From: Antedon mediterranea
Lineage: Eukaryota; Animalia; Echinodermata
Direction of reading: 5' to 3'
DNA length: 64,000 nt
NCBI RefSeq assembly: GCF_964355755.1
Contig: NC_092670.1
Location: 2,780,201 to 2,844,200, forward strand
Positions within the stretch are counted from its first letter, which is position 1. Each line of letters opens with the position of its first letter. The notes beneath the pieces are model-generated. The model did not search any database, had not been told where the DNA came from, and saw nothing but the letters and a program-made list of their open reading frames with translations. Positions 33,838 to 62,400 of the stretch are shown one piece after another. Both the position numbers and the translations under genes were made by a program.

Positions 33838-35706
33838 ATTTGTAATACATTATAAACAAATATTTTGAAACTATCATATTTAAAAAAAATATATTGATGA
33901 CATTTTTCGTAGGAACTTAACGGGACAGACATTTTTGTTACGGATGGGACATATTATTTAAAAATATTTTATTTTATGCATCTTGTTAACATTTTTTCCC
34001 ATACATATACTGTACTATTACTTTTTATTTTACAGTAAGCTCCAATTGTTCATAATCAAGTATTTTATTAAAATTGTTTATTAATTTCATACTTGAATTT
34101 AAAAATGCATAATTGTTAATTCTGAGACATTTTGATTAGGTTTTTCCTCACTTTTCCTCAATTATTGAAGTAATGGCTAGAATCTAAGACCACAGCGTTG
34201 ATAGTCATTTTGTGTTACTTTTTGGTAACTTTATAGAACAAAACTGTAATACAAGTTGCAAAATGGCATTGGAATCATTCACTAGAGCGTTAAAATTATA
34301 GATTAGGTTAAAAAATATCAAATTGCGTGTGATGCATGCAGGTATGCATGGCAGGCCTTTTAAATTATTAGAATCGACTTATTTATTTATACCATTTAAA
34401 GACGAAAACATTATAGGCCCTAGTATTTATTTTTACATATAATGCAGTTTGTGACCTTTCGTTAAAATGCATACGAATGCTATTAAATAAGTACAATACT
34501 CAAAAGCCCCTTTCTCACAGAGCTGTGTGCCAGGAATATACCATTACCATGCCGGTATGGTTTTCTGTGAGAACGGGTCGTCTTGGCATCATGCCGGCAT
34601 CGACATGACCTGCTTTAGACCTAGTAATATTACTAGGGATATTCCCCACAATGCCAGACGGGCATTCTGTGAGAACGTAACGCCGTTACATTCCGGGGTT
34701 ATATTTAATTCCCGTCGAGGCTTTGACACCTTGCGCGGTCAAGTGTATCACTTTGGCGCCGATTCATTCAATTAACAATAATAATGTCGAACTGGAGGGA
34801 TAAGAGAGCTGCTTAAAATAAGGGGACAAGAAAAAATTTGTAGCATTAGGCCATAGCTCTTTGTTGGTGCCTGACCCTTCGTCGCCTTGTAAATTTTACA
34901 GCCTTCTAAGGTGTTTTACAGATTGCCGATTGACGGCTAATTAATTGCTGTACCTGTATAATATATGCACAATATACTGTACATAGCATGTATTGCATAA
35001 ATATGCTATAAAGGAAGATAATAATCTGTAACCTAACATTCGCCGCCATATATCCCTAGACAAAAATAATAACAATAAAGGACGCCCTCAATAATTATTT
35101 TGTCAGAGACTTTTTATTGGCCGAATATGCCCGACTCCTTTCTCACAGAAAGCCGGTATATACCGGTTATATTTCCGGCACGATAGTCCGATGAGAATGG
35201 GTATATGCCGGTAACGATACCGGCACGACGCCAGCACTGTACCGGTATATTGCAGACGGGTGTGTAGAAAGCGACGACCTCGAATTGGACGACCCCAACG
35301 ACCCGGGAGACCTCGAATTGAACGACCTCGAATTGAACGACCCATAACACGAAACCGACGACCCCTATAGCCTAGCCTAGCCTAGGCCTAAGTGTGGTAT
35401 AACATCCCAAAGCCGAACATAGCCAAAGATCTTTAAACTATACCTTATTTTATCATACTCGCAAGCAAGAAATTGATTGAAAAAATACAGAAATATCGCC
35501 ATTTGATACTGATTGTGTCGACACGAACAAACGAAAAGATATGGAACGCCAAGAGTGCATCATTAAAACTGCATTCGACATATTAAAAATAAATTAAAAA
35601 GAAATAAATATTATACAATACATGGTTAAACCATGGACGTATAATTACATCTCGTCTTCTTATAACGAACACTATAGGCCTACCAAGCAGAGTAACATGT
35701 GCATGG

Positions 35707-36504
35707 GGAAATATGACCGGTTGGGCCGCCGACAAGTTGAGCCGCCGGTAATTTCTATGAAACGGCCAGTGCGTCTTTTACGACATTTCGCGTAGTGATA
35801 GAGTGGTGTCCTAGTAGGCCCTACATAAGTTCATGGTCTTTAGGTTTATTGTGTCATGAAAATAAATAATAATTACATACTACAATTTTGTTGGTTTGAA
35901 ACAGCAAAGGATCGTAGTCCTATTTAATAATTTAATTGTTTTTAATCTTTCAAGGTAAAAATGCAGTGCACTCCATAAATATTTTTCTCGCGTGTATGCC
36001 TACCACGTAAAATCACGTCTCTCAGGAGGACTAATAGAGTATTGATATTCTTCGAATGAGGTTAAATAATTATTATTTTTTATTTACTATCTTTTAATAT
36101 CATATTTTATTGAATTTTACAATGTTAATACACAAAATATTTTACTAAAAAACGGTGATTTTATGCAATTATTTTACTTCAACTGCCGCCTGAGGGGGCA
36201 ACATGTTTACGTCATTTTTGGCTAAAAACGATCATTTTCGGTCATGTTTTAGGCCTTATATTTTGGAATCTACAAGTCAGATATTCATAATTATTTCTCT
36301 TTAATTATAATATTTAATAATATATACTAAAAACCGTGATATATAAACTTTGGAATATACATCGTTATATCTAATAATTAATATAAATAGAACTTCTATT
36401 AAATAGAAACGAGCACCGGCGAAAGTAAGCATTTGGCGTTTCATAGAAAATAACGTTTTTCTGGCGGCGCCTCAACTTGTCGGCGGCTCAACTTGGCCTA
36501 ATCC
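35707..36504. mobile_element. Inner TIR element nested in the MULE
   Basis: Inverted GCCGCCGACAAGTTGAG repeats, GG...CC ends, flanked by direct repeat TGCATGG. Confidence 0.55.
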
Positions 36505-36557
36505 TGCATGGGGAGGGCCATAAGAAAGCTTTACATTTCACACATGCATTGTATACG

Positions 36558-36684
36558 GTCAAACCAGGGAGTTGTTATCTAATAACAACTCCCTGGTCAA
36601 ACCATGGAGGTATACAAATATTTTTATACCTCCATGGTCAAACCATGGAGCTGGTAAAACCATGAAGTACCTCCATGGTCAAAC
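36558..36684. repeat. Array of four GTCAAAC direct repeats separated by three 31-34-bp palindromic inserts (putative P-type excision footprints)
   Basis: GTCAAAC at 36558, 36596, 36637 and 36678; every insert starts CA and ends TG. Confidence 0.75.
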
Positions 36685-38329
36685 CTCACCTGCCGCTGAA
36701 AAAGGGGCCTGGTTTGCCATGTTTATGATATTTCGTGTGCTAATCGAGTCGAATGCAGTTTTAATGATGCACTCTTGGCGTTCCATATCTGTTCGGTTGT
36801 TCGTGTCGACACATTCAGTATCAAATGGCGATATTTCTGTATTTTTTCAATCAATTGCTTGCTTTGCGAGTATTATATAAGGTATGGTTTAAAGATCTTT
36901 GGTTATGTTCGGCTTCGGGATGTTATACCATACTTAGGCCTAGGCTAGGCTAGGCTATTATAGGGGTCGTCGGTTTCGTGTTATGGGTCGTCCAATTCTA
37001 GGTCGTCCAATTCGAGGTCGCCCGGGTCGTTGGGGTCGTCCAATTCGAGGTCGTCGTTTTCTACACACCCTATTGCAGACACATCTGTGAGAAAGGGGCT
37101 TATGTGCAATCCGTTTTTAAACCAGTTAATATACCAAAATATGTTATTAGTAGCTTTATTATTTTGGATTTGGTGCTAGTTTGGTAAATATTGCAATATA
37201 ATTGTAGATTATTTGGTTGTAAAAAAATGTACCCAACTTGTAGTATTATCTAGGCCTAGCCCATTTGACGGAAACCCAGTGCTATTTGTAGGGGGATAGA
37301 GAGGGCCGCAGGCTAGTTTTTAGTGGCATATCGCCGACTTATTATAATCAATGTGAAGCCATATTATTATTATGTTTAAAATGTTGAATCTATATCCACT
37401 GGATTATGGATATATATATCGTCGGATATTTAAAGAAAGGCCTAGGCCTAGACCTTTTGATTTATTTAATTAATTTAGGACTATATTACGGGAAATTCTT
37501 TGCCAAAGAAAAGAAAATACGTTGTGGCTGTTGGAGGTTTGTAAATATTATGACAATAATGTAGCCTAGGCTAGGAAGGACTGTAGGTAGGATGAGGTAA
37601 TTTGGATGGTCGTACATATTATGATATTTATATATACAGTATTGTGTATAGTAGTGATCATGGCGACAACATTTAGGATGACTAAAGTTGACATTAAAAT
37701 TATTTAACTATGAATAGCTCATTATTGGTGTTTTTTTTTTCTTTCAGGTTTCTAAGAATAAACTATCCGACTTGTGATTCATCTTGTGCTGCAAAAACAA
37801 TCCTATTTTGATATTTGTAAATTGATGTACGTAACAGATGTCTTTAAAAATAAAAAAAAAATAAAATTTTTTATTATCGCGATGATTTAACTCAAATATT
37901 GACATATATAACTTGATATTTTAGCCTGAGCAAGATAGTTTGATAGGCATATTTTACTTCGATGTAAATAAGATATTACATGTTATACTGTATGTAAAAT
38001 ACTTTTTTGTAAATAAAATTATTTAATGGTGGTTAATTTATTAACTTGTTAATTTGTTTGTTAGTTATGATGTTATACTATTAATTATTTAGTTAGTAAC
38101 CAAAGTGGAGTGGATTCGTGGCAGTTGCAACTTGACTGTAATATGCATATATATAATAATATTTACTTCTTCTTGGATAAAGTTAAAGCAAAATAAGCAA
38201 TAATAAAAATTAAATATTTATTTTGCCATAAAGAAAGCAAAAACTAAACATACAGTACTATATGTACAGTAATACCATGGACCTATAGGTCCATGGTAAT
38301 ACATACTGTAGTATTGAGCACCAGTAGCA

Positions 38330-38940: not shown

Positions 38941-40047
38941 GTGTGGATTGTGGAACTAATCAGCCTTTAGTTTATGGTGTTTTTAATATAATTTATTACT
39001 AAAGAATTACGTGTTAAAATTATAGTTTCTATTAATACTATAGGCCTAATTAGTAGTCTCTAAACCCATGTCTATTCTAGTAGTAGCTGTGTGGGTGTGT
39101 GTGACGTGTGTGTGTTAGGTATGACACAATCCGAGTAATAAGTCAGCAAAATTAAACATTAAACATTACACAAAAATACATTTTTTATTCTCGTGGGTCT
39201 AATCTTCCCATCTCATGTGTTCATATACGCGCATTTTTAAAGTTCCTTTGAATTCATGCATATTGTTTGATAATAAAATAGCAGAATTAAAAAAATACTG
39301 TACACAAATTATACACATTCTTTATTCTTGTGGGTCTAAGCTTTTTTTGGGCTATGTCCAATGAATTACTACTTAGTTTAATGTCTTGCCTAGCTGTCGA
39401 TTAGCCTCGACTCGACACATTTTGTGTGAAGAATAGTGCGCGAAGGCAATCATGTGAATTGACTTCAGTTAACAAGGACTCTGTCCATGATAGAATCACT
39501 ACTTAAAGAAAATTGCGAACCAGATGTTTTAAAAACTTACATTATCAAGGCGGAGGAACAGTTCAGAAAAGTTGAGTTAAAACACTCTGAACTGATTGAT
39601 GTAATTGAAGACCAGGGAGAATTTGAAACGGAAGAGAAATGGATGTTAGAATGTGAGATGGATTTCCTTCAAAAGTTGGTATGTGCAAAACAGGAGATTA
39701 CCCTGCGCCACTCACAATCTACAGTCGATGTACCATTTTCAACTCCAACAACTCCTCTTCAAACATCAGCCTCAACGCAGCCTGCTGGTACGGTTGCCTC
39801 GCCGCCTGCATTCAGTTCACCTACACCTCGACCTGCTATGGCAAGGTCAACGCCTACCATGGCAAAGATGAAGTATCCTACATTTAATGGCAACATCCGG
39901 GATTACAAAAGATTTATAGAATTATTTACACATTGTGCAACTAATCTAACTGAGATTGAATGTTTCTACCAGCTAACTGAATCTATGATTAACAGCAAAG
40001 AAAGAAACATGGTTAAAGAAGGATGTATCGATGTGGCTAGAGCTTGG

Positions 40048-40261
40048 TGTAGTGTCTATAGACACGGCGACCGAGAGGTCAAAGGTTGTAGAGCACATAA
40101 AGTGTGTGTGCGGTTTTGTTGTGCTGCGAGCACGCCATATCGATAATAAAGGCACCGTTGTTTGTGTTAAATAGAGTTAACCCGTCTCGTGTTATTACTA
40201 CATTGTTATGACGACTAAGAGAGTAAGTGTATAGGAACTTACAGAGGTAACTAACTTTACA
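40048..40261 (+). repeat. Gypsy 5' LTR
   Basis: Identical to 49798-50011; contains AATAAA. Confidence 0.96.
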
Positions 40262-40286
40262 GTGGCGACGAGTATAAATTTATAGA

Positions 40287-40798
40287 ATGGCTTTTCAGGT
40301 AAGCCCAATTGCCGGTTTTGATACGACGGACAGCCAAGCCCTCGGACAACGTTGGGAAAAATGGCGGAAATCTTTTGAGTTGTACATAGTTGCGAGCAAC
40401 GTCAAAAACAACCAGCAAAAGAAGGCTATATTATTACATACAGCAGGGGAAGGAGTACAGGAGTTATTTGAAACGTTAACAAAGGAAGATGACACTTATG
40501 AAAAAGCAATCGAAGCGCTAAATGCTTATTTTTTGCCGAAGAAAAATGTTGCATTTGAAAGGCATGTTTATCGACAAGCTGTGCAGGAGAACGGGGAAAC
40601 GATGGACAGTTTTGCTACACGCCTGAAGAAATTGATAAAAACATGTGAGTACGAAACTGAACTAGAAAAAGATATGATAAGAGATCAAATAATTGAAAAG
40701 TGTAGATCAAAGAAGTTGAGAATTAGATTGCTTAGAGAGGAAAAATTAACATTAGACAAAGCGTTAGAAATAGCACGGGCACATGAGCTAGCGGACAC
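40287..40798 (+). CDS. gag: Gypsy gag N-terminal part, cut by the P-type insertion
   Basis: WEKWRKSFELY...LLHTAG...FERHVYRQAVQENGET...IRDQII...LTLDKALEIARAHE. Confidence 0.9.
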
Positions 40799-41926
40799 CT
40801 GAGACAACAATCAAAGAGATTGGAAACGCTTGTCGGTTCCCTTTGATCTACTTATTTCGTCTTAGTAGTTTCATTGTTATGTAAATTAAGTGTGCGCTCG
40901 AGAAAAATCCACTCGACGGAGATCGCACGCGATCGCTTCGCAATATACGAGATAGTAACAGTTTACCAGATTTCCTTCAGCAAATTACGCTTAATTTGAA
41001 CTTCAAATTATATTTTTAGGATATTAAAAGGTAAGAGTTTTAAATAATGTTTGGTATTTAACTGTTTTTAAAAAGAAAAATTAATCTTGTTTTAGTAGAA
41101 CTTGGTCTGCAAAGTAGGGTAGTTCTAGACTCGTAGACAACCGTAGATGGACTACCCCATCTAGACTGGGTTAGTGTGTCGTTGTCGGAACGGCTACTTA
41201 AAACACCAGTTTTTGAGAGCATTGCAATTTTACTAAAAGACACTCTTGTGTAATTAATGAGTTTTATTATGATAGAATAACTATTTTTCTGTGGTATGAT
41301 GTACAATTTATTAGGAAAAAGTAATGTTTAATATGTAATTAAGTATGATGATTTTACTGGTTTTTTAAAGTTTTCGCTAAATACGCTAAATACACAATCG
41401 TAATTGTGTCACATTTGGAACAAAAAAATCTTTATCTTATTTATGATATTGTATCACTTACTTACCTTTTAATGATAGTTAAATATATAAATGTTGGTAT
41501 GCGTGTATTTTTTAATCATTTGAAATTTGTATTTATTCAATATCATTTTCCTTAGCGTAGGCCCAATGTCATCGCATGGCCTTATTTAGCCAGGGCTAGT
41601 CACAGGGATTCATAATGCATTCATTAGCGTAATTTCGCCTAAATTAAGTCTAGGCTAGGCTAGCTTTTACCTTGTCAAATCAAATTGATCCTATTTCCAA
41701 ACTTGTTTTTACTGCTCTATTTGGTGTGCAGTAGTATGGAATGGTAGTTGGGTGGGGTCAAACAAAATTGGTTGGGGAAGTGAGGGGGAGGGGGTGAGGG
41801 TGAGGGGGATTATTATATTGCTTAGTGGGGCTTTAGTGTTTCTTGCCTAGAAGTAAGTGCCTGAAATGCATGTACAGAAACCAGTGCAAACCAATGATCA
41901 ATGTTTTCTTTTATTTATAACAGATC

Positions 41927-44564
41927 ATGACAAGAAAAAAAAGAAAAGCATTAATTGGTAGACGATACAAATATTGTGTTAATGGTCTTCCATCTCAACG
42001 AAAACCACTCACTCGTCAGCCAATTGAGCAAGTTAAGCATTGTGACTTCACTGGAAATTTTGCAAATTGTGATTGTGTTGTTCATAGTGTACACAATGAA
42101 CCACTGCTTGAAGTAAGTACATAGGTTGTGTAAAAAGATTGTATAAAGTATTTAATCATTATAGTGTGGTTATAAATGAGTGTTTCTGTGTGTATTGCAG
42201 GAACATAAGGAACCAATTGAGAGTTATTTAGTACTTGGATCTTCATTGACAAAACTTGAGACAGAAGATAACATCAATTATGTGACATACCAGCAGTTGC
42301 GATTTGATTGCACAAGGAAACAAGAAAAGCTGAATAACATTGGTTTTGAAGTCATTAAGGCAACTAGTGATCTGACACTCATTCAGTTCTATGAGAAACG
42401 TTTTTTTTCTGTTAAGATGGCAGTTACCATTGACAAAAACTTTAATATAACCGTAATCGTTCATAACAAGCGCTTACCTGATAATCATACAATATTTGAA
42501 AGTATACGGAAGGTGCATGTGTTTAATCATTTATTCATGTTTTTAAAATTCTTGTTTGATAAATATACTGTGTGCATAGGAAATCCTGACTTAACTGCAT
42601 TGCAGGAAAACAAGTATGTGGAACATGATTGTGGAGCAGAATACACACAAACAATCCGAACTGATCGCTGCTTCCTTTTAACTACTTTAACAAACAGGTG
42701 CCCCCATTGTGCAACATACAGACGATCATTGCGAAAATCTATGAAACACAATCAGTCATTTGAAGTATTATTGTCATCTAAAAGGCCTAATTCCAGTTTG
42801 ACTAAAAATGATTTATTAATTAAAAGTAAGATGCTAAAAAAACAATGTCAAAGTGTTGAAAGAAAAAAAAAGCAAATATTAATTAATCAGGAAATTAATC
42901 AAAAATATAAGAACAATGAACTGACAGATGATTCTAATGGTGACCTAGAAACTATTATTCAAGAAGGAGAAAATGCTTTCAACAATTTGTTTCGAGATCC
43001 TGATTCATTTCAAAGAATATTTTGGGAAGAACAATTAAAATTCAACAAGTTAAAAGAGAAAAGACAGATGAGGTGGCATCCTATTATTGTGAAATGGGCT
43101 TTGTACTTGAAATCTAAATCTTCAACTGCATATCAAGCACTGAGAGAAACTGGTTTTATAAGTTTACCAAGTGAAAGAACATTATATGATTATAGCCACG
43201 TCATTGATAGTAAATTAGGTTACCAGAAAGAAGTTTTAGAAATGCTACACGAGGAGGCTAAAAGAAAAGGACTCTTTACTGAAGAATGGCGATCATATGT
43301 TGGAATTTTACAGGATGAAATTAAAATAAAAGAAGACTTGGTATATTCTGCCTCCACTAATGAATTGATTGGATTTACAAATTTAGATAACATTAGCAAT
43401 GAGATTCACAAAATTGAAAATAAGAAAAATGAAATCACCAATGAGATGGCAAAAAGTGCATTAGTTATTATGGTACGAGGGGCAACAAGTAACTTAAAAT
43501 TTCCATTGGCAGTTTTTGCAACAAATGGACTACGTTCTGAAGATCTCCACACAATTTTATGGAGAGCCATTGAACTACTTGAAATAGATGTTGGACTGAA
43601 AGTTTTGTATCTTACATGTGATGGTGCTAGCCAGAATAGATCATTTTTTGATTCTCATGGGCTTAAAAACAAGTTTAGTTGTACAAATCCTTTTGCTCCA
43701 AATCGGAATCTATATTTTATTTCAGATGTCCCTCATCTGCTAAAAACAGCTAGAAATTGTTTTTCAAATTCTGGTAGTCACAAAAAATCAAGAAATCTGT
43801 GGAAAGGTGGACAGAACATTTCATGGATGAGTTTAGTTCAACTGTTTGAAGAACACACAGAAGGAAAATTGTATAAAAAAACAAAACTAACAAGAGCACA
43901 TATTGACCTCACCCCTTTCAGTGTGATGAAAGTCAATTTAGCTGCTCAAGTTTTCAGTAACAGAGTTGCACAGCACATGAAAGAAGTATATGGTGACAGT
44001 GCAAGAGAAACAATCACCTTCATAACTCACATGAATCGCTTTTTTGACTGCTTAAATACAAGAAACAATAACGCTGGTAAGTTATCCAGAAACACAGACT
44101 TAAATCCATACAAAGACATCCATGATCCAAGACTTTCATATTTAGAGACAGAGTTTTTAGGATACCTTGAGCAATGGGAAAATGATGTAAAAGAACGAGT
44201 AGGAAAATTTGCTGATGCAGAAAGAAAGCGTATGTTACTAAGTCAGCAAACCATACATGGCTTTCATATCACCATTAATTCTATTGTAGCATGTGTTCGT
44301 TATTTGTTGGGAAAAGGAGCCAAATTTGTAAATACGTGTGTGTTTAATCAAGATGTACTCGAACAGCACTTTGGACATTATAGACACAAACAGGGAGCAG
44401 GTGACAATCCAACAATTGATAATGTTCGACATACATTAAATACACTTAGGGTTGTTGGGTCAGCAGCAGTTGCACCCATAAGAGGCAACACTAAGCGAAT
44501 TATGTCTGAATTGGACAAAGAAAATTTAAACATTCCACTTAAACGCAGAGTAAAAAAGTCTTAA
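41927..44564 (+). CDS. P-element/THAP9-family transposase catalytic core (exons 41927-42112 + 42201-44564, about 849 aa)
   Basis: RWHPIIVKWAL...AY..LR...LPSERTL; catalytic D (QDEIKIK), D (TCDGASQN), DVPHLLK.ARN, MKVNLAAQVFS, E (NQDVLEQHFG); phase-0 GT-AG intron 42113-42200. Confidence 0.92.
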
Positions 44565-44663
44565 TAGCATTTTATAATAGTAAATTTGACTTTTTTTTTA
44601 TTTTGCACAAAACATTTACAGTACTCCAGTTAATAAATTACAGCGTATAGCTTATTTTTCATT

Positions 44664-46181
44664 TTACTTGTTTAATTCTTTTAGTTCTTTTCTTAATGCT
44701 TTTTTAGTTCCGGCAGCAAGTTTTTGTTGCTTTCGTTTTTTTTGCATTTTGCTTTTAAGTTGTTCAGTTAAAGCAAACCCTCTAATTTTTAAAAATAACT
44801 CAACAACATTGTCCAACACTATCCATTTCTGTGTATTTGGTGAGGTTATAAGGTTACACCATATATGTGTTACCAGTTTATACTTTAGTATTGTAGACTT
44901 TATGTTAATTAAAGAATCATGTTGTAAACTTTCACTGTTCATTAACTCCCTAATCCAACGCTCAATTAAAATAATTAAATTAAGAAATTTTGTTGAGGGG
45001 TAAATCAAACCGCCTCTGTCCAAACTTTGTGTCCATGAACATCTACTGTCTACACCATTATCAGTGGTCAGATTGCTAAGCATCTCTCTTTCAACTGGCT
45101 TGTTCATGTACCTTTTTTTCAATTTTCTTATAATAGAACCTGTAATATGATGGATGATTTGCTTGTCTGCTGTAGTTACTAACTCTATTTCCATATTATA
45201 TCTTACTTCAATTTTTTCATTTTGTCGTTTAAAAAATGATGTAGTTATGCAGGTCAAAAATCTTTGAACAAAAGCCTCCTTTTCAGTTTCTGTATTATTA
45301 ATATTAGTAATTATCTTATTCAAAAAATCATGAATAAACTTTCTGTTTATCCTCAGCTGGAAAACAGCTTTTAGGATATCTGCAGCTGTGGGCTGCAGCA
45401 GACTATCCATAATCTCTTCCGATAAAAACATATTTATTTCAGATTGATTCTCTAATATTGATTTTGCAATTGAGATCACACCTAAACCACACTTGGACCA
45501 TGATGCATGGTGAATGTCATCGGTTACTAATATGTTCAGTGCATCTGTCACCATGTGTGGCAAATCTTCATTAATTTCCTTGGCAGTGGTAAGTGGTAAA
45601 GGACTAGGCCTACAGGCTGTTGATTTTGTTGCCATAACTGAAAAAAAAAAACCTAATTGACGAGCTTTCTTATTTATTTATATCGTATATTGCTCTTTAA
45701 TTTACCCTGATTTAAAATTATTAACATTATGTGACATAGCCTAATAATTATAGGCATACACTTAAGAATGAATGAATGCCTTATTGAACCTAACCTCTAG
45801 GCCTACTATACTACTACACCTATAGGCTAGGGCCTTGGCCTAGTATTTATTAATAATTAGCCTAGGCCTATATAGGGGCCTAATAAATAATTAATAATAA
45901 ATATGCTGGCCTGGCTAAATGAATAGGCCTACTGCTGCTGTAGGCCTATTATATGTAGGCTAATATTTGATAATTATCCCAAAGAAATCTTTTTTTTTCA
46001 ATTAATTCTTGTAGTGTTGTACTCTGGTGTTAATAATCATTTTTACAGAAAAAATTAATACCTAATTTAACATTTTTAAACAACATAAATAATGTTTATA
46101 AACACCTATAGTCTTACCGTATATTTCGTTGTTTATCTCCTGCTCGCGAGGTTTAAAAACCCCTCCAAAAACTTTTTTCAT
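44664..46181 (-). CDS. Second transposon gene resembling the P-transposase C-terminal domain (exons 46118-46181 + 44664-45637, 345 aa; or 323 aa from the ATG at 45635)
   Basis: HHITGSIIRKL, DRGGLIYPSTKF, LFLKIR and a basic tail parallel the P-transposase C-terminus; strong poly-T-CAG acceptor and GTAAG donor join an upstream ATG in frame. Confidence 0.75.
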
Positions 46182-46356
46182 GGATCACTGATTTTGATAA
46201 ACAGTTAATCTGCGCTTGCGCGAATTCGCTGATTGGCCGGTGACTTAGCTAATTTGCATAACAAAGAGGTATACTACACTGAACCTGGCGGCAAGTGCCA
46301 CACAAAGGGAAATCGCTAGCGTTTCCAATCTCTTTGATTGTTGTCTCAGCGGACAC

Positions 46357-49300
46357 GCAGGCCCATCAAATGGAAGCTTCGAGATTACAGACCACGCAAC
46401 AACAACAAGGTAGCGTCGAAGGCGCGTACGCGATGAGTCAAAACAACCGCCGCGAAGCAAGTCGCGATGGTCACCGAAAAAAGTGGGCGGAGTCTAAGAA
46501 AAGTTACAGTAGTGCTTCGAGCTCGAGTGGAGGAGATAAGACGTGTTATCGTTGTGGCAAACCAGGTCACATAGCTAAAGCTTGTAGTGTTGTGAATAAC
46601 AAGAAATGTCATAATTGCGGAAAATCTGGACATTTTGCGGTAGTGTGCCAGTCAAAAAAACCAAGTAATCACTCAAGAAAGTCTAAACCAAGAAAAGTGT
46701 ATCAAACCACGACGAACAGTAGTTCTGATAGTGATACTGATAACTCTGAGACTTTATTTGTTATAAAAACAAAAGATACTAAACCATTGTGTACTGTAAA
46801 TGTTAACGGTAAAGATGTAAGGTGTTTGATTGATTCAGGAGCCAGTGTAAATATTATTAATTATGGTATTGCTAGAGAATTAAATATAAAGATTAGGCCT
46901 AGCAAGATGAAAGTGTATACTTATGGATCAAAAGAACCATTAAGAGTAAAAGGAGAGTTTGATGCCTATGTGCATTATGGGAAAAAAGGTATAAATACAA
47001 CATTTGTGGTAATTGATAATAAGGAATGTTGTACAATCCTTGGGTATAGAGGTGCAAGTGATCTTAACATATTAAAGATAGATATGTTGTGTAATGTCCA
47101 AGTCAATGACAAAAATGATCAGTTATTTAACGAATACAAGGATGTCTTTACCGGAGTTGGTAAATTAAAGAATTATGAATTAAAGATACATATTGATGAT
47201 AAGGTACAGCCCATAGTTCAACCACAAAGAAGAATTCCTTTTAACTTAAGAAATGCAGTAGAAAGAAAGTTAAATGAGTTGTTAGATCATGACATTATAG
47301 AGCCGGTACAGGGTCCCACATCGTGGATATCACCACCAGTTTTTGTACCTAAGAAAAATAGTGATGATTTGAGAATGTGTATAGATATGCGTAGGGCAAA
47401 TGAGGCCATAATGAGGGTTAGATATCCCATACCGACGATTGAAGAAGTTTTACATGACATGAATGGAGCCACACTATTCTCGAAAATAGATCTTAAATGG
47501 GGGTTCCACCAAATTGAACTGGATGATAAGTCACGTGACATAACTACATTCATAACACATTGTGGGTTATTTAGGTTTAAACGTCTCATGTTCGGTATTA
47601 CAAGTGCCCCTGAAATGTTCCAGCATATCATGGAACAAGTACTGGCAAAATGTAAAGGGGTAAAGGTAATTGCCGATGACATAGTGGTGTATGGTTGTAA
47701 TCAGAAAGAGCATGACGTAAATTTAAAGAATGTATTAAATACATTAAGAGAAAGAGGGTTAACGGCAAACTTGGACAAATGCAAGTTTGGTCTAGATAAG
47801 TTAGATTATATGGGAAATGTATTGTCCAAAGATGGATTAGAGGTGTCTAAACAAAAAGTAGTTGCTGTGAAAGAAGCAAAGGTTCCGACAAATGTTGCGG
47901 AAGTTAGAAGTTTCTTAGGTTTGGTCGGGTATTGTGGAAGATATATAAATAATCTTTCAACAAGGGAAGAACCATTACGAAGATTAACACGGGCAAAACA
48001 ACCCTGGGTCTGGGGTAAAGAACAAAATGATTCTTTAAATGACCTGAAGAATGCACTTACAAGTGCAGAAGTAATGGCATATTACAATAACAAGGCTAAA
48101 ACACAAGTTATAACTGATGCTAGCCCAGTTGGGGTAGGGGCAATTCTAGTACAAAAACAGGATGATGGCATGTTTAAGCCTGTGTTGTATGCCAGTAGAT
48201 CGCTAACTGATGTCGAACGGAGGTATTCCCAAACAGAAAAAGAAGCCCTGGGGATAGTTTGGGCATGTGAGAGGTTCCATTTGTATCTGTACGGAATTAA
48301 GTTTGATTTAATTACAGATCATAAACCGTTAGAGGTTATTTACTCAGCACGATCGAAACCATCAGCGAGAATAGAACGCTGGGTTTTAAGATTACAACGG
48401 TATACTTTTAGTGTTATCTATAGACCAGGAAGGTTAAATGCTGCTGATGCCCTCTCAAGATTGCCACTTGTAGTAGAGTCTAAGAGAAATGTAGCTGAAG
48501 AGTATATATATTTTGTTGCAAAGAGTGCAACACCAATGGCCTTAACCACTAAAGAAATAGAACAAGTTTCAATGAAAGACGAAACAATGATATGCTTAAG
48601 GGAAGCAATCACTAATAATAATTGGTCAAATCCAAAAGTAGAAAGCTTCAAACATGTAAGAACGGAGCTAGCAGTAATAGGGAAGTTGATTTTAAGGCAA
48701 CATAGAATTGTAGTGCCAGAAGAGTTAAGGAAACAAGTATTGAATTTGGCACATGAAGGACACCAAGGCATAGTAAAATGTAAATCTAGATTAAGGACAA
48801 AGGTTTGGTGGCCTGGAATCGATAGAGAAATTGAGAATTATGTAAAAGTGTGTCAGGCTTGTCAGGTAGTCGATAGACAAAGTAGACCTGAACCAATGAA
48901 ACCAACCGATCTGCCACAAAAGCCATGGCAGCATATTGGTATTGATTTGTGTGGTCCGTTTCCTGGAGGGGAAAGCTTATTAGTAGCAGTGGACTATTAT
49001 TCTAGATGGTTTGAGGTAGGTGTACTACACTCAACCACAGCAGGGAAAGTGATCGAGACCTTAGATAATTGGTTCACAACTCACGGATTACCAGAGATGA
49101 TCGTGAGCGATAATGGTCCTCAGTTTAGAGGTGATGAGTTTAAGAGGTTCGTAAATGAGAACGGAATTTCTCACAGAAAAACTACACCTTATTCTCCTCA
49201 AGCAAACGGAGAAGTTGAAAGGCAGAATAAAACACTCCTAAAAGCTATTAGAGCAATGTCTGCCGAAGGGAAAGTGTGGAAGAGAGAGATTAATAAGTTT

Positions 49301-49726
49301 CTGTTGGCGTACAGAACAACACCACACTGTGTTACTGGTGAAAGTTCAGCACAATTGATGTATGGTAGACAACTCAGGACCAAGTTGCCTGAGATGGGTA
49401 ATGAAGGGAGAGACCCAAACGATGATGATATTAGAGTTAAGGATTATGAAAGTAAAGTAAAACAGAAGGAATATTGGGATAAAAGAAAGAAATCGAAAGA
49501 ATCAGAAATTAAGAAAGGAGATAAAGTGTTTGTGAAACAGGATAAGAAAAATAAGTTGAGTACGACTTATGGAGAGATGCCATATAGTGTAATAGAAAAG
49601 AAGGGAAACAGTGTTCAGATCGAAAACGATGAAGGTGTACAGAAACGAAGAAATGTAAAAGACCTTAAAAAGATTGAGTTTGAAAAGGGTAATGAGAAAG
49701 TAAATGAATCTGATGTTACAGAGTAG
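46357..49726 (+). CDS. pol: Gypsy gag-pol remainder: two CCHC knuckles, protease, RT, RNase H, integrase
   Basis: CYRCGKPGHIAKAC, CHNCGKSGHFAVVC, LIDSGAS, IADD, TDAS...TDHKPL, HEGHQG...CQAC, VSDNGPQF, NGEVER; rejoins gag in frame (ELADTQAHQM) to a single ORF of about 1,293 aa. Confidence 0.95.
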
Positions 49727-49797
49727 AAGTTTATAGTTTTAATGTTATAGTTTTAATGTTAGTTAATGTTAGTTATCTTAAATGAGAAAAGAAGGGA

Positions 49798-50011
49798 TGT
49801 AGTGTCTATAGACACGGCGACCGAGAGGTCAAAGGTTGTAGAGCACATAAAGTGTGTGTGCGGTTTTGTTGTGCTGCGAGCACGCCATATCGATAATAAA
49901 GGCACCGTTGTTTGTGTTAAATAGAGTTAACCCGTCTCGTGTTATTACTACATTGTTATGACGACTAAGAGAGTAAGTGTATAGGAACTTACAGAGGTAA
50001 CTAACTTTACA
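49798..50011 (+). repeat. Gypsy 3' LTR
   Basis: Identical to 40048-40261. Confidence 0.96.
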
Positions 50012-50897
50012 CTTGGGAAGTGTTAGATGAACGCTACGGAGACAAAGACAGAGTGGTTGATAGTCTGTTGAAGGATCTAGAGAATTTAAAGTCCTATGAA
50101 AGTAAGGACAAGATCAACATTCCAGCCATGAGTCGTTTTGTCCAAACCCTTCAAACGTTTGAAACCAGAGCGGAAACCATTGGTTTATCTGGAGAATTGA
50201 ACAGCAAAATCATGCTGAGCCAAATAAAACAGAAGTTACCAGAAGAACACAGAATAGCTTACTATAAAAGCGTTAGGGACAACGACACAGGTCATTCTCT
50301 CACTGGCTTGGTTAAATGGCTGTACAGCCAATTATTGTTACTTGAGAAAGCTATGCCCATGACTGAAACTGAATCATCTTCATCGTCAAAAAAGGCTTCA
50401 AATGCTGCTGTAGTGTCATCTGCAGAAGGATACAAGTCAGACTACAATAAAAATCCCTAGATTAGAATCCTAGGCCTACTGTAGAAAGAATCGTATCGCA
50501 GTTGTTCGTGTAATCACTTCTTGTTGCTATTGGCCTACGCTTGGGTGCACACGGAACAACAAATTTAACTGATAATTATTCATGTTTATTTTGTGACGTT
50601 TCATGAGGGGGACCCCAACTTATGTACGAAAAAAAAAAATCGCGTTCGGGTGGACACTTTTCAGCATTGGATAGTGTCCAGTTGCATGTTTCAACGGGTT
50701 CGTGGGCGTTTTTCAACAATTTAATGCTGTCCGGCCCGTTTAATAATGTCTGACCCATGGATTGAAATGCGTCCACTATTAAATACTGTATCATACTGTA
50801 CGTTTTATGATACGTGGTTGTTTTTATCACGCCTGCACTTGTCTTGTCTTCTTTTAATAACCAATAATACTTAATGATGCCAAACTAATTTTTTTTT

Positions 50898-52372
50898 CTA
50901 ATTAAAGATCGCTTTGCCTAAACACCTCCAATTAGGGACCATTATATTATTTGGTATGTGAAAAGACAAGAAGAATAAATAATTGTTAAGTATGTGACAA
51001 AAACAAGTAAATGAAGTGGTCCTCTTCCAATTAAAAATCACTTTACCTAAAACACCTCCAATTAGCGACCATTATATTATTTAGTATTAATAAAGCAAGA
51101 AGAATATATAGTTATTAATTATGTGACAAAAAACAAGTAATTGTACTGGTCCTCTTTCAATAAAGGACCACTTTACTTAAAACACCTCCAATTAGCGACC
51201 ATTTTATTAATTGGTATGAGTAAAGACAATAATAATTAATAGTTTTAATTATGTGACAAAATTAAGTAACTGTACTGACTGGTCCGCTTCCAATTAAAGA
51301 TCACTTTACTTTAAGACACCGCTAATTAGTGACCATTTTTATTAATTGGTATGAGTAAAGGCAAGAATAATTAATAGTTTAATTATGTGACAAAATTAAG
51401 TAAATGTACTGGTCCGCTTCCAATTAAAGGTCACTTTACTTTAAGACACCTCTAATTAGCGACCATTTTATTAATTGGTAGGAGTAAATACAAGAAGAAT
51501 ACATAGTTTTAATTATGATAGTGACAAAATTAAGTAAATGTACTGGTCCTCTTCCAATTAAAGATCACTTCAGTTTAAGACACTTCCAATTAGCGACCGT
51601 TATATTATTTAGTATGAATAAAGACAAAAAGAATACATAGTTTTAATTTTGTGACAAAAACAAGTAATATTGTACTGGTCCTCTTCCATTAAAAACCACT
51701 TTACTTATAGACACCTCCAATTAGTGACCATTTTATTAATTGGTATGAGTAAAGACAATAATAATTAATAGTTTTAATTATGTGACAAAATTAAGTAACT
51801 GTACTGGTCCGCTTCCAATTAAAGATCACTTTACTTTAAGACACCTCTAATTAGTGACCATTTTTATTAATTGGTATGAGTAAAGGCAAGAATAATTAAT
51901 AGTTTAATTATGTGACAAAATTAAGTAAATGTACTGGTCCTCTTCCAATTAAAGATCACTTCAGTTTAAGACACTTCCAATTAGCGACCGTTATATTATT
52001 TTGTATGAATAAAGACAAGAAGAGGAAATAGTTTATAATCATGTGATAAAAAACAAGTAATTGTACTGGTCCTCTTCCAATTAAAGATCACTTCAATTTA
52101 AACACTTCCATTTAGCGACCGTTTTATTATTTTGTATGAGTACAGACAAGATGAATAAATAGTTTATAATCATCTGTGATAAAAAACAAGTAATTGTACT
52201 GGTCCTCTTCCAATTAAAGATCACTTTACTTTAAGACACTTCCAATTAGCGACCGTTTTATTATTTTGTATGAGCACAGACAAGAGGAATAAATAGTTTA
52301 TAATCATGTTATAAAAAACAAGTAATTGTACTGGTCCTCTTCCAATTAAAGATCACTTTACTGTAAGACAGA
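50898..52372. repeat. Tandem repeat of about 130 bp, 11-12 copies
   Basis: CAATTAAAGATCACTTTACTTTAAGACACCTCTAATTAGCGACC... recurring near 51028, 51291, 51421, 51816, 51946, 52078. Confidence 0.92.
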
Positions 52373-55147: not shown

Positions 55148-57417
55148 ACTAGACATGAAACTCGTCACTTTGACGAGTTAGTTATCCGCACGACAAACGC
55201 CACGAGCACGTCATACGTTGGAATATTGCACACAGAAAAAGATTAAGGCATTATGACCTGAACTGAAGAATATCATATCTTGTTAGTGCTGAATTCTGTC
55301 TATTTTGTGTCATATAGTATATACAGTATAATGTATACATATTACATACAGTGTAGAATAGGTGAAATTACGGGACCCACCGTTTATTCCAATTTTTAAC
55401 ATGGCGACGGTATCAAAATGAAACACTAAGATAGCAATTTCGGAAGGAAATTATCTCAGCAACAACATATTAACGTGTAGAAGAAATTTGAATACTTAAA
55501 ATATAGATGCGCTCTCTTTTAAATGTGATGAACTATTACGCAAAATATGAAAATACGACTTTTTTTTATTCAACTGGCCATATGATGACGTCACAACATC
55601 CGATTGGCAAAATATTTACATGAATTCGTATCTACAATCCCATAGCTTCCAGAAAACGTTTTAATCATGATTATCGCTTTTTATTCTGATGAGCTATAAC
55701 AGATTGAAATTTACTGTAAAGATGAAAATAAGTGACCCACGTTATTTACAATTTTCGACACGATGACGTCATAAAATATAAAATATTTTTAATTCATGCG
55801 AAAGATAGTTCATTCACCTAGACAATATCAAAATCGGGGTGAAAATAAAAAACGGATAAGTGGAGATACAGTACGCTCTATTAAATGTGATGCGCTATGA
55901 CGAAAGATATAAAAATCCTATATTTTATATTCGCGTGGCCATACGATGACGTTATAATGTCCGATTAGCCATATTAATGCATGATTCCATATTAGTCTAG
56001 TAGGAAGGAGGGGTTACCGTGCACCCCCATGATGTATTTTTTTAATGTACATTTTTGTAATCCTGAATATATGTAATTAACATTTTTTGATGTTCCCAAG
56101 ACGAAATATTGTCCCATGGGGTTTTTTGGGGGCCATTTTGGTGGCCATCTTGGATTTATCAAAATCATAAATATAGACGGTACTTGACAAAGACTGATCA
56201 TAGAGGTCTGATTTTGGTCTTAAATTGTTCAGAATATGCACATTTCTATGTACTATAATGAAAAGTTTTTGTTCAAAATGGCCGTAAATGCCACTTTTGA
56301 CCTTTGACCTTGTTTTTACATAAGGGTCATATCTTGGTAACCCCTGGTCATAAAGATTTTATTTTTGTCTTAAATTGTTCAGAATATCCATATTTATATT
56401 CGCTTTAATGGAACATATTTTTGAAATTTGACGGGAAATATCATTTTTGACCTTTGACATTATTGCGTAACGATTTTCGCAATAATTTAGGTTATTTTTG
56501 TATTCGACCTATATCTTGACAACGAGTGATCATAGAGGTTTGATTTTGGTCTTATATTGTTCAGAATATGCACTTTCCTATGTACTATAATAAAACATTT
56601 TCATACAAAATGACCGGAAATACGACTTTTGACCTTTGACCTCGTTTTTACATAAGGGTCATATCTCGGTAACCAATGGTCATAACGATTTTATTTTTGT
56701 TTTAAATTGTTCGGAGTATCCATATTTATATTAGCTTTAATGAAACATATTTTTGAAATTTGATGGAAAATATCACTTTTGACCTTTGACATTATTTCCA
56801 CCCGAGGGTCATATCTCTTTAACCCCTGGTCATAAAGACTTTATTTTTGTCATAAATTGTTCAGAATATCCATATTTATATAAGATTTAATGAAACATAT
56901 TTTTGAAAGTTGGCAGGAAATACAAATTTTGACCTTTTACCTTGTTTCCGCCCGAGGGTCATATCTCGGTAGCCCTTGGTCATAAAGACTTTATTTTTGT
57001 CATAAATTGTTCAGAATATCCAGGAGTGAGGACCTCAATTTTCACAGAATTCTTATATAGTAAGAATGTTTCTGTTTTCAAAATAAAACTATGTATATGT
57101 AGGTCTACATAACTACTCATTCAAAACCCATTTATCAAGTTACTGCAATAGATGTTCAGTCATCGTCCACCTCAAATTCAATTCCTTGTTCATCATCTTC
57201 ATACTCTTTCAACTCCATGGTCGTTTTCTCAACTAGATCAATAAGATGGGCTGAAAGAATAGGACTGCATGACCAGACTGTCCTGTCACCATGCCCTTGT
57301 AGTTCATTCATACTAGTGTGATATCTTGTTTTAATGATTAAATGACAGTTTGGCACGCCCTACATCAGGACATTTCCAAATAAGAGGAAGTGCCTTCATC
57401 TAACCCTCTAAGGTCAA

Positions 57418-57964
57418 ATGTATAGAGGACATATTCCTGGTCAACTTCATGATATACAAATTTATGTTTCTGTCAAGCCCCGTCAGACTGAGATTCTGAC
57501 CGCCGTAAAACGTTTAGAAGCATGCACTGCTGAGATTAGGACATGGATGGGCTTAAACTTCCTCAAGCTTAATGAAAAGACCGAGGCAATCGTATTTGGA
57601 GTGGAGTTGCGTGTTCAATTTAAGATCCTGCTGGTGCTCCGATGCATAAATAGTTGCGTTCTCAAATACCTCTCAGAATGATCGACAATCAATAAGAGAA
57701 AGCGAGAACTAAGATCTAGTCATCAGGTGCTACTGGACATTCAGAGGCGCAAACATAGTTGGGGAGATCGGACTTTCAGTATTGCTGGACCTACAGTAGG
57801 TTCTGGAACCACCTATCTTTGAACATTAAACAAACATCATTATTGAGCACCTTTAAGTCACTACTCAAAACTCACATTTTCTGATATTTTTGGTAGCACC
57901 ATGAACAATGACTGTTGGAATGGCGCTATATAAATCGAATGATTGATTGATTGATTGATTGATT
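57418..57964 (+). pseudogene. L2-clade LINE 3' fragment
   Basis: DIQIYVS...IRTWMGLNFLKLNEKTE...RVQFKILL...GDRTFSIAGP...LKTH; (GATT)n tail. Confidence 0.8.
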
Positions 57965-58460
57965 AGTAGCATCTTCTGACCGCTTAGTATTTATTGTATT
58001 ACTGTACTGAATACTCAGTAAATGGCTGTAGACAGGCAGCCCAGATACATTTGGTTAGATGAGCTAGGTACCAATATCTGACTATTTAAGTGTGTTAATT
58101 GGAGGTCACTTGAAGTCAATGTAAATGGAAGTCTGCCGGGTACCCCCTGCTGCGTCTATACCGGGGGACACGAAAGGTGCTAACAAATCGGCACCAATTA
58201 GATGAGAGAGATACCACCTAATTTCACCACCATGGGATGCCCATTTGCATCCTATATACCAATATCATATCACCAAACATTTTGTCCTCTGCAATAGGCC
58301 CACCAGATCCCCCCCCCCCACCCCCGAGGGAGGGCCTACAAATGGTGATAGCATAGCTGAGTGAGGTACCACTCAAAATTAATGCCAAATGAACAAGTTG
58401 TGTTCATACAATACTAAATGGGTAACGACAGACTAATTGTCTGCTGCACCGCAAGTGCCA

Positions 58461-59010
58461 GACACCCTAAAGTTCGACTAGAGACCCCCTTCCCACAAAT
58501 GGCCTAGATTAGATATTGTAGATACCACCAGCAGCCAATGTTATATGATTTAGCACATTGTAAGAAATACCAAATGACCTATTACAGACTATCTGTACAC
58601 TGCCTTGGCCCTGGCAGACCCCTCTAAAGTTCGACTAGAGACCCCCCTTCCCCACAAATGGCCTAGATTAGATATTGTAGATACCACCAGCAGCCAATGT
58701 TATATGATTTAGCACATAGTAAGAAATACCAAATGACCTATTACAGACTATCTGTACACTGCCTTGGCCCTGGCAGACCCCTCTAGAGTTCGACTAGAGA
58801 CCCCTTTCTCCCAACTAGCCTAGCTTACTGTAGATATTGTAGATACCACCAGCAACCAATGTTATATGATTTAGCACATTGTAAGGAATACCAAATGACC
58901 TCTATTACAAACTATCTGTACACTGCCTTGGCCCTGGCAGACCCCTCTAAATTTTGACCATAAGTATACCGTGCGTAACCTTAGATATTGTAGATACCAC
59001 CAGCAATCAA
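58461..59010. repeat. Tandem repeat of about 160 bp, about 3.5 copies
   Basis: AGATATTGTAGATACCACCAGCA recurring near 58511, 58670, 58832 and 58983. Confidence 0.9.
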
Positions 59011-59014
59011 TGCC

Positions 59015-59410
59015 AACATTAAAAGTCTTTCGGAGATTATGGCCTTGTGAGAAACACTCATCCACTAATTATAAAAATTTGGGTCCGATATTGGTCTTTA
59101 CGTTCTTGCTGTACGGAGGATTGAACCAAATGATGTTTCTGTTTCGGGTTTTCTTTTTGGTTGCTTGTTCAGGTGTAGCTCATGTTCATATCCATTATTT
59201 CTAAGTGCTTCTTGGTACTGAGGTATTGCTGCATTAAACGAATTTTCATCGGATGAGATGTTTGAGAGTCGTTTATTTATTGCTAGTGGTATATTGTGTA
59301 ATTGATGGCCGATGATTACTTTCACGATGTACATATAATGGCGTATTGTTTGGTTTGGTGTATATGGGTGGAAGGTACCTGTCCTCAGATCGAGTGTTAT
59401 GTCAAGAATA
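59015..59410 (-). pseudogene. Penelope-like element RT C-terminal fragment
   Basis: LDITLDL...INKRLSNISSDE...YQEALRNNGY; in a shifted frame [19 protein letters not shown]...HNLRKTFN. Confidence 0.8.
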
Positions 59411-62400
59411 CCATCCACGTGTAAAATACAATTATCCCCTTTTCTTTCCCTAAATTTTCCATTATTTAATGAAGAATTGAATTTGATTAGAATGTATTTT
59501 TGTAGCCGTCTATCAGTACTGTTTCCAAAATAAATTAAGATTATGAAGATGTTGACATTAATTTTGTTATTGTCTCTTCCAATTGGACAATAAACACATT
59601 CTATTGGATAAAAGTTGTTTGCAGACCTAAAAGTAGCCACCTTTAATTATGAATAATTATGTAATGAAACGTGTTATCAGACACTTTTTTTAAATTATTT
59701 ATCAGATACTTTTTTCTAATTTGAGAATTGTTAAGAATTCTTGCATTATATGTAAATTATATTTAAATAGGGGTCAAAGGTAAAAAATGACATTTATTGT
59801 CAGTTTTTGAGGATAAATCATCATTAGAGTGGATAGCATGTATATTCAACAGTTTTTTATAAAGTCTGTAATTTTCCCTTTTTCTCAGCATGTTGTTATT
59901 TTATTTACATCTTTAAATTTATTTTTACTTTAAAACAGAAAAAATTCTTACTGTATGAGAATTCTGTGGAAGGTGTTAAATGTGACAATTGATAGTAACA
60001 TTTATGATCATTGTTTTAAATAAATATTCATTAGAGTGGATAGAAATATGTATGTTTTGAACAATCTTAGACAAAAAAAATTTGTTTCCGAGATATGGCC
60101 CTCAAGTGAAAATAAGGTATAAAGTTGTATTTCATTAAATGTTATATAAATGTGGATATTCTGAACAATTTATGACAAAAATAAAGTCTTTATGACCAGG
60201 GGTTACCGAGATATGACCCTCGGGTGGAAACAAGGTAAAAGGTCAAAAGTTGTATTTCCTGCCAACTTTCAAAAATATGTTTCATTAAATCTTATATAAA
60301 TATGGATATTCTGAACAATTTATGACAAAAATAAAGTCTTTATGACCAGGGGTTAACGAGATATGACCCTCGGGTGGAAATAATGTCAAAGGTCAAAAGT
60401 GATATTTTCCATCAAATTTCAAAAATATGTTTCATTAAAGCTAATATAAATATGGATACTCCGAACAATTTAAAACAAAAATAAAATCGTTATGACCATT
60501 GGTTACGGAGATATGACCCTTATGTAAAAACGAGGTCAAAGGTCAAAAGTCGTATTTCCGGTCATTTTGTATGAAAATGTTTTATTATAGTACATAGGAA
60601 AGTGCATATTCTGAACAATATAAGACCAAAATCAAACCTCTATGATCACTCGTTGTCAAGATATAGGTCGAATACAAAAATAACCTAAATTATTGCGAAA
60701 ATCGTTACGCAATAATGTCAAAGGTCAAAAATGATATTTCCCGTCAAATTTCAAAAATATGTTCCATTAAAGCAAATATAAATATGGATATTCTGAACAA
60801 TTTAAGACAAAAATAAAATCTTTATGACCAGGGGTTACCAAGATATGACCCTTATGTAAAAACAAGGTCAAAGGTCAAAAGTGGCATTTACGGCCATTTT
60901 GAACAAAAACTTTTCATTATAGTACATAGAAATGTGCATATTCTGAACAATTTAAGACCAAAATCAGACCTCTATGATCAGTCTTTGTCAAGTACCGTCT
61001 ATATTTATGATTTTGATAAATCCAAGATGGCCACCAAAATGGCCCCCAAAAAACCCCATGGGACAATATTTCGTCTTGGGAACATCAAAAAATGTTAATT
61101 ACATATATTCAGGATTACAAAAATGTACATTAAAAAAATACATCATGGGGGTGCACGGTAACCCCTCCTTCCTACCCTACTATATCTACAACTCATCTAC
61201 TTCCAGAATATATAATTTAAAAAAAGTTCACCACGTAGTTTAGAATTTATGAATGTTTAAAAAAAGGCATAATTTTGACGAATTTTGACAAATTTTTGAA
61301 CTTTTTCGTCAAAAACGCACGTAAATTATCCAATTGGATGTGCCCGTATGACGTAATTTTAGGTCAAAATTGTTCAAAAGTTGGTAAAATTACTAGAAAA
61401 AGCTGGAAAAACATGAATCACGCAAAATTTTTTTATTTTCAACGCTACGTGTGCACCGTGCGAGTAAAAATATACGCGCGCGTGGGAAATTTTGACATGC
61501 TCAAAATTACATGAAACGCGTAGAAAGTTGATTAGAAATTGATTTTTCGCATTTTGAAATTTTAAACGCCCGTGCGCGCGTAACTTCGTGTGAAACATGC
61601 CATTTTTTTTCCACAGTCAGTTAGCGCAAGATATAAATTAAACTTTTGTTAAGTTTCAATTTAAATTGCTATATGGTTTTCGATCTATGTTAAATACGCG
61701 AAATTCGTTAAAACGCGCGTAAATCACGTTGCGCAATTCTGACGTCATTCACAATAGGAGGTGCACAATTTCACGTGAATGCCCACATGTTGACAAAGTT
61801 ATAAAATGTTTTGTTTACAAGTTTTTGAGATACGCGAGACACAAAATTGACAGAAAGAAAGAATAATACAGAAAAAAAAAAAAAAGATGATTTCATACAG
61901 TTACAAGGAGTTATCCGCTACTAAGCGGATAACTAATTACTACTTCGAGACAAGGAATGATCAAGAGAACGAAATTAGTAATTCGAATTCCAATGAAATA
62001 ATATTTCGAGAGAACGAAAATAGGTAGGCCCTATGCCTATATGATTTAGTGATATTCATTCTCTAGAAATAATAATACAGTACCGGTAGGCTATATATTT
62101 TTTCAAGTTGTCGATTTACTTCAAATTGACAACAGGTTGTTACTCAATCAAAAACAAACAATTTAATTTGATTAGACTATATGTCTCCAGATATAATAAT
62201 AGTAATATTTATTTCAATCGACTTGATATTTTGCGATTAAAGTTGGTATTCTAAGGAATTATAATTACCCTAACGGGAGTTGGTGAACGTCCAGTGCCCT
62301 AGTTTTTACGGGGTTAATATGATGTCGATGTCGATGGTCCTACTTTTTTATCGATGAAAGCTGCCCGGGTGGTTGCAGCCATTTTCAACAGCTGGTATTA

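Follow-up and report, generated by a model that had tools for sequence, protein, structure and literature searches.

Catalytic core and C-terminal domain of a P-type transposase on two convergent genes of a transposon in Antedon mediterranea

Transposons of the P superfamily move by a guanosine triphosphate (GTP)-dependent cut-and-paste reaction with 17-nt staggered ends, and the P element is the textbook single-gene transposon. The Drosophila P transposase and vertebrate THAP9 are treated as single chains in a published account (PMC10824691), and the C-terminal domain of the fly enzyme contacts both transposon and target DNA, tethered by a disordered linker (PMC7776569). We present here a P-superfamily transposon from the echinoderm Antedon mediterranea, located in a 64,000-nucleotide window (GCF_964355755.1, contig NC_092670.1, positions 2,780,201 to 2,844,200; coordinates below are those of the window), in which the core and the C-terminal domain lie on two convergent genes. 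We consider it probable that the P transposase of this element is encoded by both genes and that the two products come together at the transposon ends to form one functional enzyme.

The element is intact and occupies positions 40799 to 46349 (5,551 bp). A sequence-only reading of the window had proposed intact terminal inverted repeats (TIRs) and a target-site duplication (TSD) around a P-type element, a DDE core (open reading frame 1, ORF1) ending about 65 amino acids past its catalytic Glu and lacking the C-terminal domain, that domain on a separate, intact minus-strand frame (ORF2) recognizable by its motifs, and recent mobilization into a Gypsy retrotransposon. All of these proposals are borne out by the results below.

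ORF1 lies in a plus-strand frame of 794 open codons (42180 to 44564). Its main coding exon (42201 to 44564) encodes an alpha/beta domain, a four-Cys motif, a coiled-coil region, an HTH (helix-turn-helix) motif, and an RNase H domain with a GTP-binding insertion. A splice model built from the sequence adds a predicted first coding exon of 62 amino acids with a basic N-terminus (41927 to 42112, plus strand), giving an 849-amino-acid protein; of 87 ORF1 homologues, only the five top-scoring ones share the motif C-x-F-x-G-x-F-x-x-C-x-C-x-x-H of this exon. A Pfam scan returned the TNP-like RNaseH_N domain (3e-26) and the GTP-binding insertion (6.5e-18), with PF21787 and PF21788 above the cut-off and RNaseH_C below it. 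The only sequence match in the PDB was the Drosophila P transposase (6P5A chain A, 1.5e-14). The catalytic residues are D at 43314, D at 43620, and E at 44361; the second and third are identical to those of the fly enzyme in the PDB alignment, and the first, assigned from its motif, is the same in all 44 aligned relatives. All eight GTP contacts listed for the fly protein (PMC7776569) are identical in the same comparison.

The AlphaFold model of ORF1 (predicted local distance difference test score [pLDDT], 81.8) reaches Z 34.9 against 6P5A chain A, with 431 of 442 residues aligned, and is also matched to that chain by Foldseek (E 7e-21); the next fold family scores Z 11.3, the next matches being Hermes, Transib, and RAG1. 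Since model residues 256 to 784 superpose on chain residues 128 to 569, ORF1 stops where the solved fly core ends and the disordered linker starts. This end lies 66 amino acids past the catalytic Glu, after a short tail (GNTKR...PLKRR), and the C-terminal P domain is not in ORF1. No THAP domain was matched in the Pfam scan by any of 44 clade members, and no convincing THAP motif was seen in any frame of 12 complete elements, although an upstream exon may have escaped notice. The four Cys residues, which follow the alpha/beta domain, are invariant in all 39 sequences that span them. The N-terminal alpha/beta part itself received no fold assignment, its RWD/UBC-like matches being weak (Z 6.1 to 6.7).

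ORF2 is convergent to ORF1 and encodes 323 amino acids from its ATG on the minus strand (44664 to 45635, open from 45635 to 44664). By profile and fold, residues 151 to 300 (45185 to 44736) correspond to the C-terminal domain of P transposase; by profile, residues 1 to 150 (45635 to 45186) form an extra helical domain. As a single sequence, ORF2 had no match in Pfam and no P transposase match in the PDB, and its ESM Atlas matches, all below 0.9, were uninformative. Family searches were more sensitive. A word-indexed search found 6 relatives, and 50%-identity representatives yielded 204 at E ≤ 0.001, 150 of which were listed. A 7-sequence profile found 6P5A chain B as its best PDB match (E 0.005), and a 145-sequence profile found the same chain at E 4.9e-6, with the next match at 0.14. 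The Pfam comparison suggested by the sequence-only reading thus failed for ORF2 alone and succeeded in part for its family, 13 of 145 members matching PF12596 (Tnp_P_element_C) at E ≤ 0.05. In the structure model of ORF2 (pLDDT 92.5), residues 151 to 300 superpose on 6P5A chain B residues 617 to 734 over 116 of 118 residues (root mean square deviation, 2.1 Å) with Z 12.0, a value near the chance range for helical bundles; the next chain scores Z 7.2. The profile points to this same chain, in the same register as the fold. ORF2 retains the full fold, buried YIAG/RGGL-type motifs, and a basic C-terminal helix within which an Arg is 98% conserved.

The ORF2 profile also matches the C-terminal domains of the fused P proteins P0092 and P0240 (E about 1e-11) at profile positions 146 to 309 only, so residues 1 to 150 are an addition. 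This extra domain is conserved, is absent from both fused proteins tested, and received no fold assignment (Z ≤ 7.2). The sequence-only reading recognized the C-terminal domain and overlooked this half of ORF2. Core sequence was found in none of 152 ORF2-family proteins, and 7,981 candidates contained a single longer fused relative, the ordinary fused P protein P0240, which is weak evidence by the tool's own note. A C2H2 finger was matched in 16 of 145 ORF2 relatives (Pfam, E ≤ 0.05). Separately, in a subgroup of 410- to 480-amino-acid relatives (P0103, P0108, P0111, P0125, and P0129), an acidic N-terminus and a C2H2 zinc finger precede the helical domains. Jointly, ORF1 and ORF2 cover the fly enzyme except for THAP and the linker.

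The two stop codons are separated by a 99-bp spacer (44565 to 44663) with one poly(A)-type hexamer per strand (44632 on the plus strand and 44597 on the minus strand). Candidate 5′ untranslated region (UTR) introns were predicted for ORF1 (41031 to 41923, plus strand, with a GT donor at 41031 and an AG acceptor at 41923) and for ORF2 (45638 to 46118, minus strand). If these introns are real, the ORF1 promoter would lie near the left end and the ORF2 promoter near the right end. The candidate introns near both ends and the hexamers in the spacer fit two inward transcripts, as far as sequence can indicate.

The convergent two-gene layout is a family trait in a broad lineage, seen in dozens of distantly related animal elements. 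Among 87 ORF1 homologues and P0240, 44 have a recognizable catalytic-Glu motif, and 42 of these end 60 to 83 amino acids beyond the Glu, the other 2 being fused; the remaining 44 are mostly partial and uninformative on tail length. A GN motif is present in 41 of the 42 short-tailed homologues and a basic tail in 34. Examples, known here from proteins, come from Amphiura, Ylistrum, Ptychodera, and Frankliniella. A metagenome scan confirmed at least 361 relatives, the best 80 of which were analyzed as loci. A convergent ORF2-like gene was detected in 27 of the 80 with a first profile, which contained no locus sequence, and in 29 with a second, which contained 17 of those loci. Among loci whose downstream sequence extends for at least 2 kb, 24 of 26 have the gene, as do 14 of 14 of those with at least 4 kb, which excludes the one-off inversion that the sequence-only reading had named as a possible refutation. 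ORF2 was always downstream and on the opposite strand; none of the 80 loci had it upstream or on the same strand. In nine additional loci from genome bins, seven have a convergent ORF2 (one weak), and two are core fragments without it. The genes of these nine loci are interrupted by introns, so the DNA is probably that of animals placed in the wrong bins. L081 to L088 are intron-bearing animal transposons on contigs that GTDB assigns to bacterial or archaeal genomes, and those bins therefore likely hold host DNA.

Complete elements, with TIRs and TSD around both genes, were recovered at 7 of the 29 metagenome loci and 4 of the 9 genome-bin loci. All 11 have a 7-bp TSD, perfect TIRs of 25 to 50 bp beginning with CAT, and a length of 4.5 to 5.8 kb. 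Four of them come from a single assembly and are almost identical, yet each has a different TSD. Where related loci have long spacers, these contained no third gene, their contents being long interspersed nuclear element (LINE)-like scraps or short frames, and no relatives were found in viral contigs.

Co-inheritance of the two genes was assessed in 32 elements in which both are covered (28 nonredundant at 90% core identity). Distances between cores track those between ORF2 sequences (Spearman coefficient, 0.75), a value reached in none of 5,000 permutations. The two trees have 17 of 25 splits in common, including 12 of 13 well-supported ORF2 splits, with no supported conflict. The ratio of nonsynonymous to synonymous substitution rates (dN/dS) was 0.15, 0.10, and 0.17 for the C-terminal-domain half of ORF2 in three diverged pairs and 0.15 and 0.14 for the N-terminal half in the two pairs that cover it. 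In the three pairs, synonymous sites of the C-terminal-domain half were clearly below saturation; more distant pairs had reached or approached saturation, and pairs close to identity carried no information. Divergence is faster in ORF2 than in the core (e.g., 62% versus 81% identity). Judged by these rates and trees, ORF2 is a functional gene under purifying selection that travels with the core.

The termini of the studied copy are a perfect 32-bp TIR on the left (40799 to 40830, plus strand), with an inner GGAAAC motif common to related elements, and its perfect 32-bp counterpart on the right (46318 to 46349, minus strand). They are flanked by the 7-bp TSD CGGACAC (40792 to 40798 and 46350 to 46356); an 8-bp duplication is incompatible with the flanks. 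Contigs of four of four sequencing runs, from two organisms and three studies, contain the empty site as a joint (40789>46348) that skips 5,558 bp, i.e., the element plus one TSD. In one run, additional contigs exit the element at both TIR ends into different flanks, so further TIR-bearing copies exist. The insertion disrupts the gag region of a plus-strand Gypsy long terminal repeat (LTR) retrotransposon (40048 to 50011; 5-bp TSD, CTTGG) whose LTRs (40048 to 40261 and 49798 to 50011) are identical at 214 of 214 positions. Given the empty site and the identical LTRs, the insertion is genuine and is inferred to postdate a very young Gypsy. The P family was thus recently active; which copy supplied the enzyme is a separate matter. 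Being intact and recent, the studied copy is well suited to testing.

Runs X6 and X8 represent a second organism with related copies bearing internal deletions, which are nonautonomous derivatives (e.g., joints 43201>43409, 44546>45039, and 41461>46248). Among the 40 listed of 209 variants, 15 in ORF1 are synonymous and 13 nonsynonymous, and ORF2 has 2 of each; these counts were not used as evidence.

In the mechanism that we favor, ORF1 would bind the transposon ends and GTP and perform the chemistry, and ORF2 would fill the C-terminal slot of the transposase in trans to ORF1. The extra N-terminal domain of ORF2 might serve as a docking module in place of the lost covalent linker, the basic tails of both proteins might allow each to enter the nucleus, and each gene might be transcribed inward from its own end. 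Because the fly C-terminal domain contacts DNA and its linker is disordered, a cut in the linker would be structurally cheap; it is plausible that a domain anchored by DNA and by two subunits could be provided as a separate chain.

Several observations weigh against this reading. A Foldseek search with ORF2 gave no match and did not find 6P5A chain B; with Z 12 also near the helical chance range, confidence in the fold match depends on the profile match, which was obtained independently. Agreement between the core and ORF2 trees is expected from linkage alone and is no proof of protein contact. Two metagenome loci, L001 and L070, have more than 3 kb downstream and no ORF2. A decayed second copy at L082 has part of the C-terminal domain on the same strand; the other strand of that copy bears a faint trace of the N-terminal half (E 0.017), so the piece probably reflects a later inversion. 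Finally, in the Ephydatia gene models P0056 and P0089, a single chain contains both core and ORF2-like sequence. P0056, known from its gene model, was considered as a fused intermediate and is an unlikely one, as it skips the catalytic Glu and nests among convergent elements.

Three alternatives were considered. The first adds to the two-subunit reading a regulatory switch, proposed already by the sequence-only reading, in which the core alone represses and germline- or stage-limited expression of ORF2 enables transposition, replacing regulated splicing. The coincidence of the ORF1 end with that of the fly core chain speaks for it, as does the repressor function of a fly protein that lacks the C-terminal part (PMC7776569). 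The candidate promoters and UTR introns at each end would permit separate control, although separate promoters are predictions only. According to the same source, however, the 66-kDa fly repressor keeps THAP, which none of the 44 ORF1 clade members has. The switch is therefore unsupported so far, and we regard it as doubtful.

A self-sufficient core, with ORF2 as a helper or regulator (in target choice, nuclear import, or inhibition) outside the catalytic complex, is in our view unlikely. Hermes, Transib, and RAG1, the next fold matches of ORF1, are generally known to need no P-type C-terminal domain to function; the core changes more slowly than ORF2, and the C2H2 fingers of some relatives suggest added DNA-binding roles. 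Against this, ORF2 keeps the full fold, its buried motifs, and the conserved Arg of the terminal basic helix, and its retention is near universal. Trans-splicing of the opposite-strand ORF2 onto ORF1, leaving the protein a single chain, is highly improbable: a strong splice acceptor precedes ORF2 and the two Ephydatia models are fused, but the acceptor sits immediately before ORF2's own ATG, ORF1 relatives keep a conserved stop and basic tail (with the GN motif noted above), ORF2-family proteins lack the core, and the omission of the catalytic Glu from the fused models and the nesting of P0056 point to gene-prediction errors.

A wider extension of the two-subunit reading is offered tentatively, as a possibility that we do not expect to hold in full. 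An old animal-wide branch of P elements would depend on a transposase that is a heterodimer, with the domain that grips the target provided as a free subunit under its own promoter; by itself the core would be inactive or would repress, and activity would be turned on by supplying the small subunit, a gene-level parallel to germline splicing in the fly. The only two fused P proteins in our tree are both on long branches and do not group together; because fused proteins did not group apart, the two-gene state may be as old as the single-chain P/THAP9 enzyme or older.

The remainder of the window contains further repeats and host exons. The Gypsy lies within another gag-like frame (39463 to 40047 and 50012 to 50460), which we take from its motifs to be BEL/Pao retrotransposon-like, making three nested insertions; an exact joint for the empty site of the Gypsy was found in two of four runs. 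Positions 55993 to 61182 hold a foldback-like element with 1,030-bp inverted arms (99% complementary) and internal 150-bp repeats; the 3,130 bp between the arms include a 159-bp tandem repeat and a LINE-like scrap. Nested inverted repeats of 87 to 119 bp, 93 to 97% complementary and about 1.8 kb apart (35251 to 37077), are probably a miniature inverted-repeat transposable element or a deleted DNA transposon. Tandem arrays occupy 10398 to 10957 (51-bp units) and 50922 to 52366 (units of about 131 bp). Host exons at 13344 to 13940 and 20871 to 21449 presumably encode a death-effector-type domain pair and a ZU5-type domain.

By its core, GTP site, TIRs, and TSD, the element is a member of the P superfamily; by gene number and THAP, it is not a canonical P/THAP9 element. 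It shares with the Drosophila melanogaster P element (87-kDa transposase; PDB 6P5A/6PE2) and vertebrate THAP9 the HTH, the RNase H DDE core, the GTP-binding insertion with all listed contacts, the fold of the C-terminal domain, and TIRs of about 31 bp (PMC7776569). The helical C-terminal domain of the superfamily is present, on a separate gene; the fly has one gene and one chain. It differs further in having a four-Cys motif and an alpha/beta domain rather than THAP, 150 extra residues ahead of the C-terminal domain, and a TSD of 7 bp instead of 8 bp. The terminus of the studied copy begins with CT, whereas its relatives begin with CAT.

Our search of the open full-text literature yielded no account of a P transposase that is split or encoded by two genes, Repbase and Dfam lying outside the scope of that search; curators of those databases may already be aware of such families. 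Many genes that carry the annotation of a truncated P/THAP9 transposase or of an uncharacterized 330-amino-acid protein in animals would be one or the other half of an intact element. Supplying one subunit separately could also yield a transposon tool that is inducible or can be retargeted.

Galileo and 1360/Hoppel, also of the P superfamily, have a P-type transposase and a 7-bp TSD but are described as intronless single-gene elements with no second gene (PMC3698922), and the comparison is by description only. Kolobok, suggested by the convergent layout, was rejected as an identity: ORF2 has the P C-terminal fold, whereas KolX has a ballast fold, and the termini are CT/CA versus 5′-RR..YY-3′ in Kolobok (PMC9587614). 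ProtoRAG likewise has a tail-to-tail gene pair inside its TIRs, RAG1L and RAG2L, whose products act as one complex (PMC7481187); its RAG2L, however, is an unrelated Kelch protein rather than a severed piece of the transposase, and ProtoRAG belongs to the Transib lineage with a 5-bp TSD. A second gene inside the element is also found in Kolobok (KolX and KolobokP, on the opposite strand in KolobokP; PMC9587614) and in maize MuDR, where it is required for integration (PMC6446971), and PIF/Harbinger and ISL2EU have two ORFs in PHIS groups (PMC4482050). The second proteins of these four are unrelated accessory folds (ballast, HNH, Myb/SANT, YqaJ, and MURB), whereas ORF2 is homologous to a domain of the single-chain transposase of its own superfamily. 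Where known DNA transposons have unrelated second proteins, here the transposase itself is split, a different route to a two-component enzyme.

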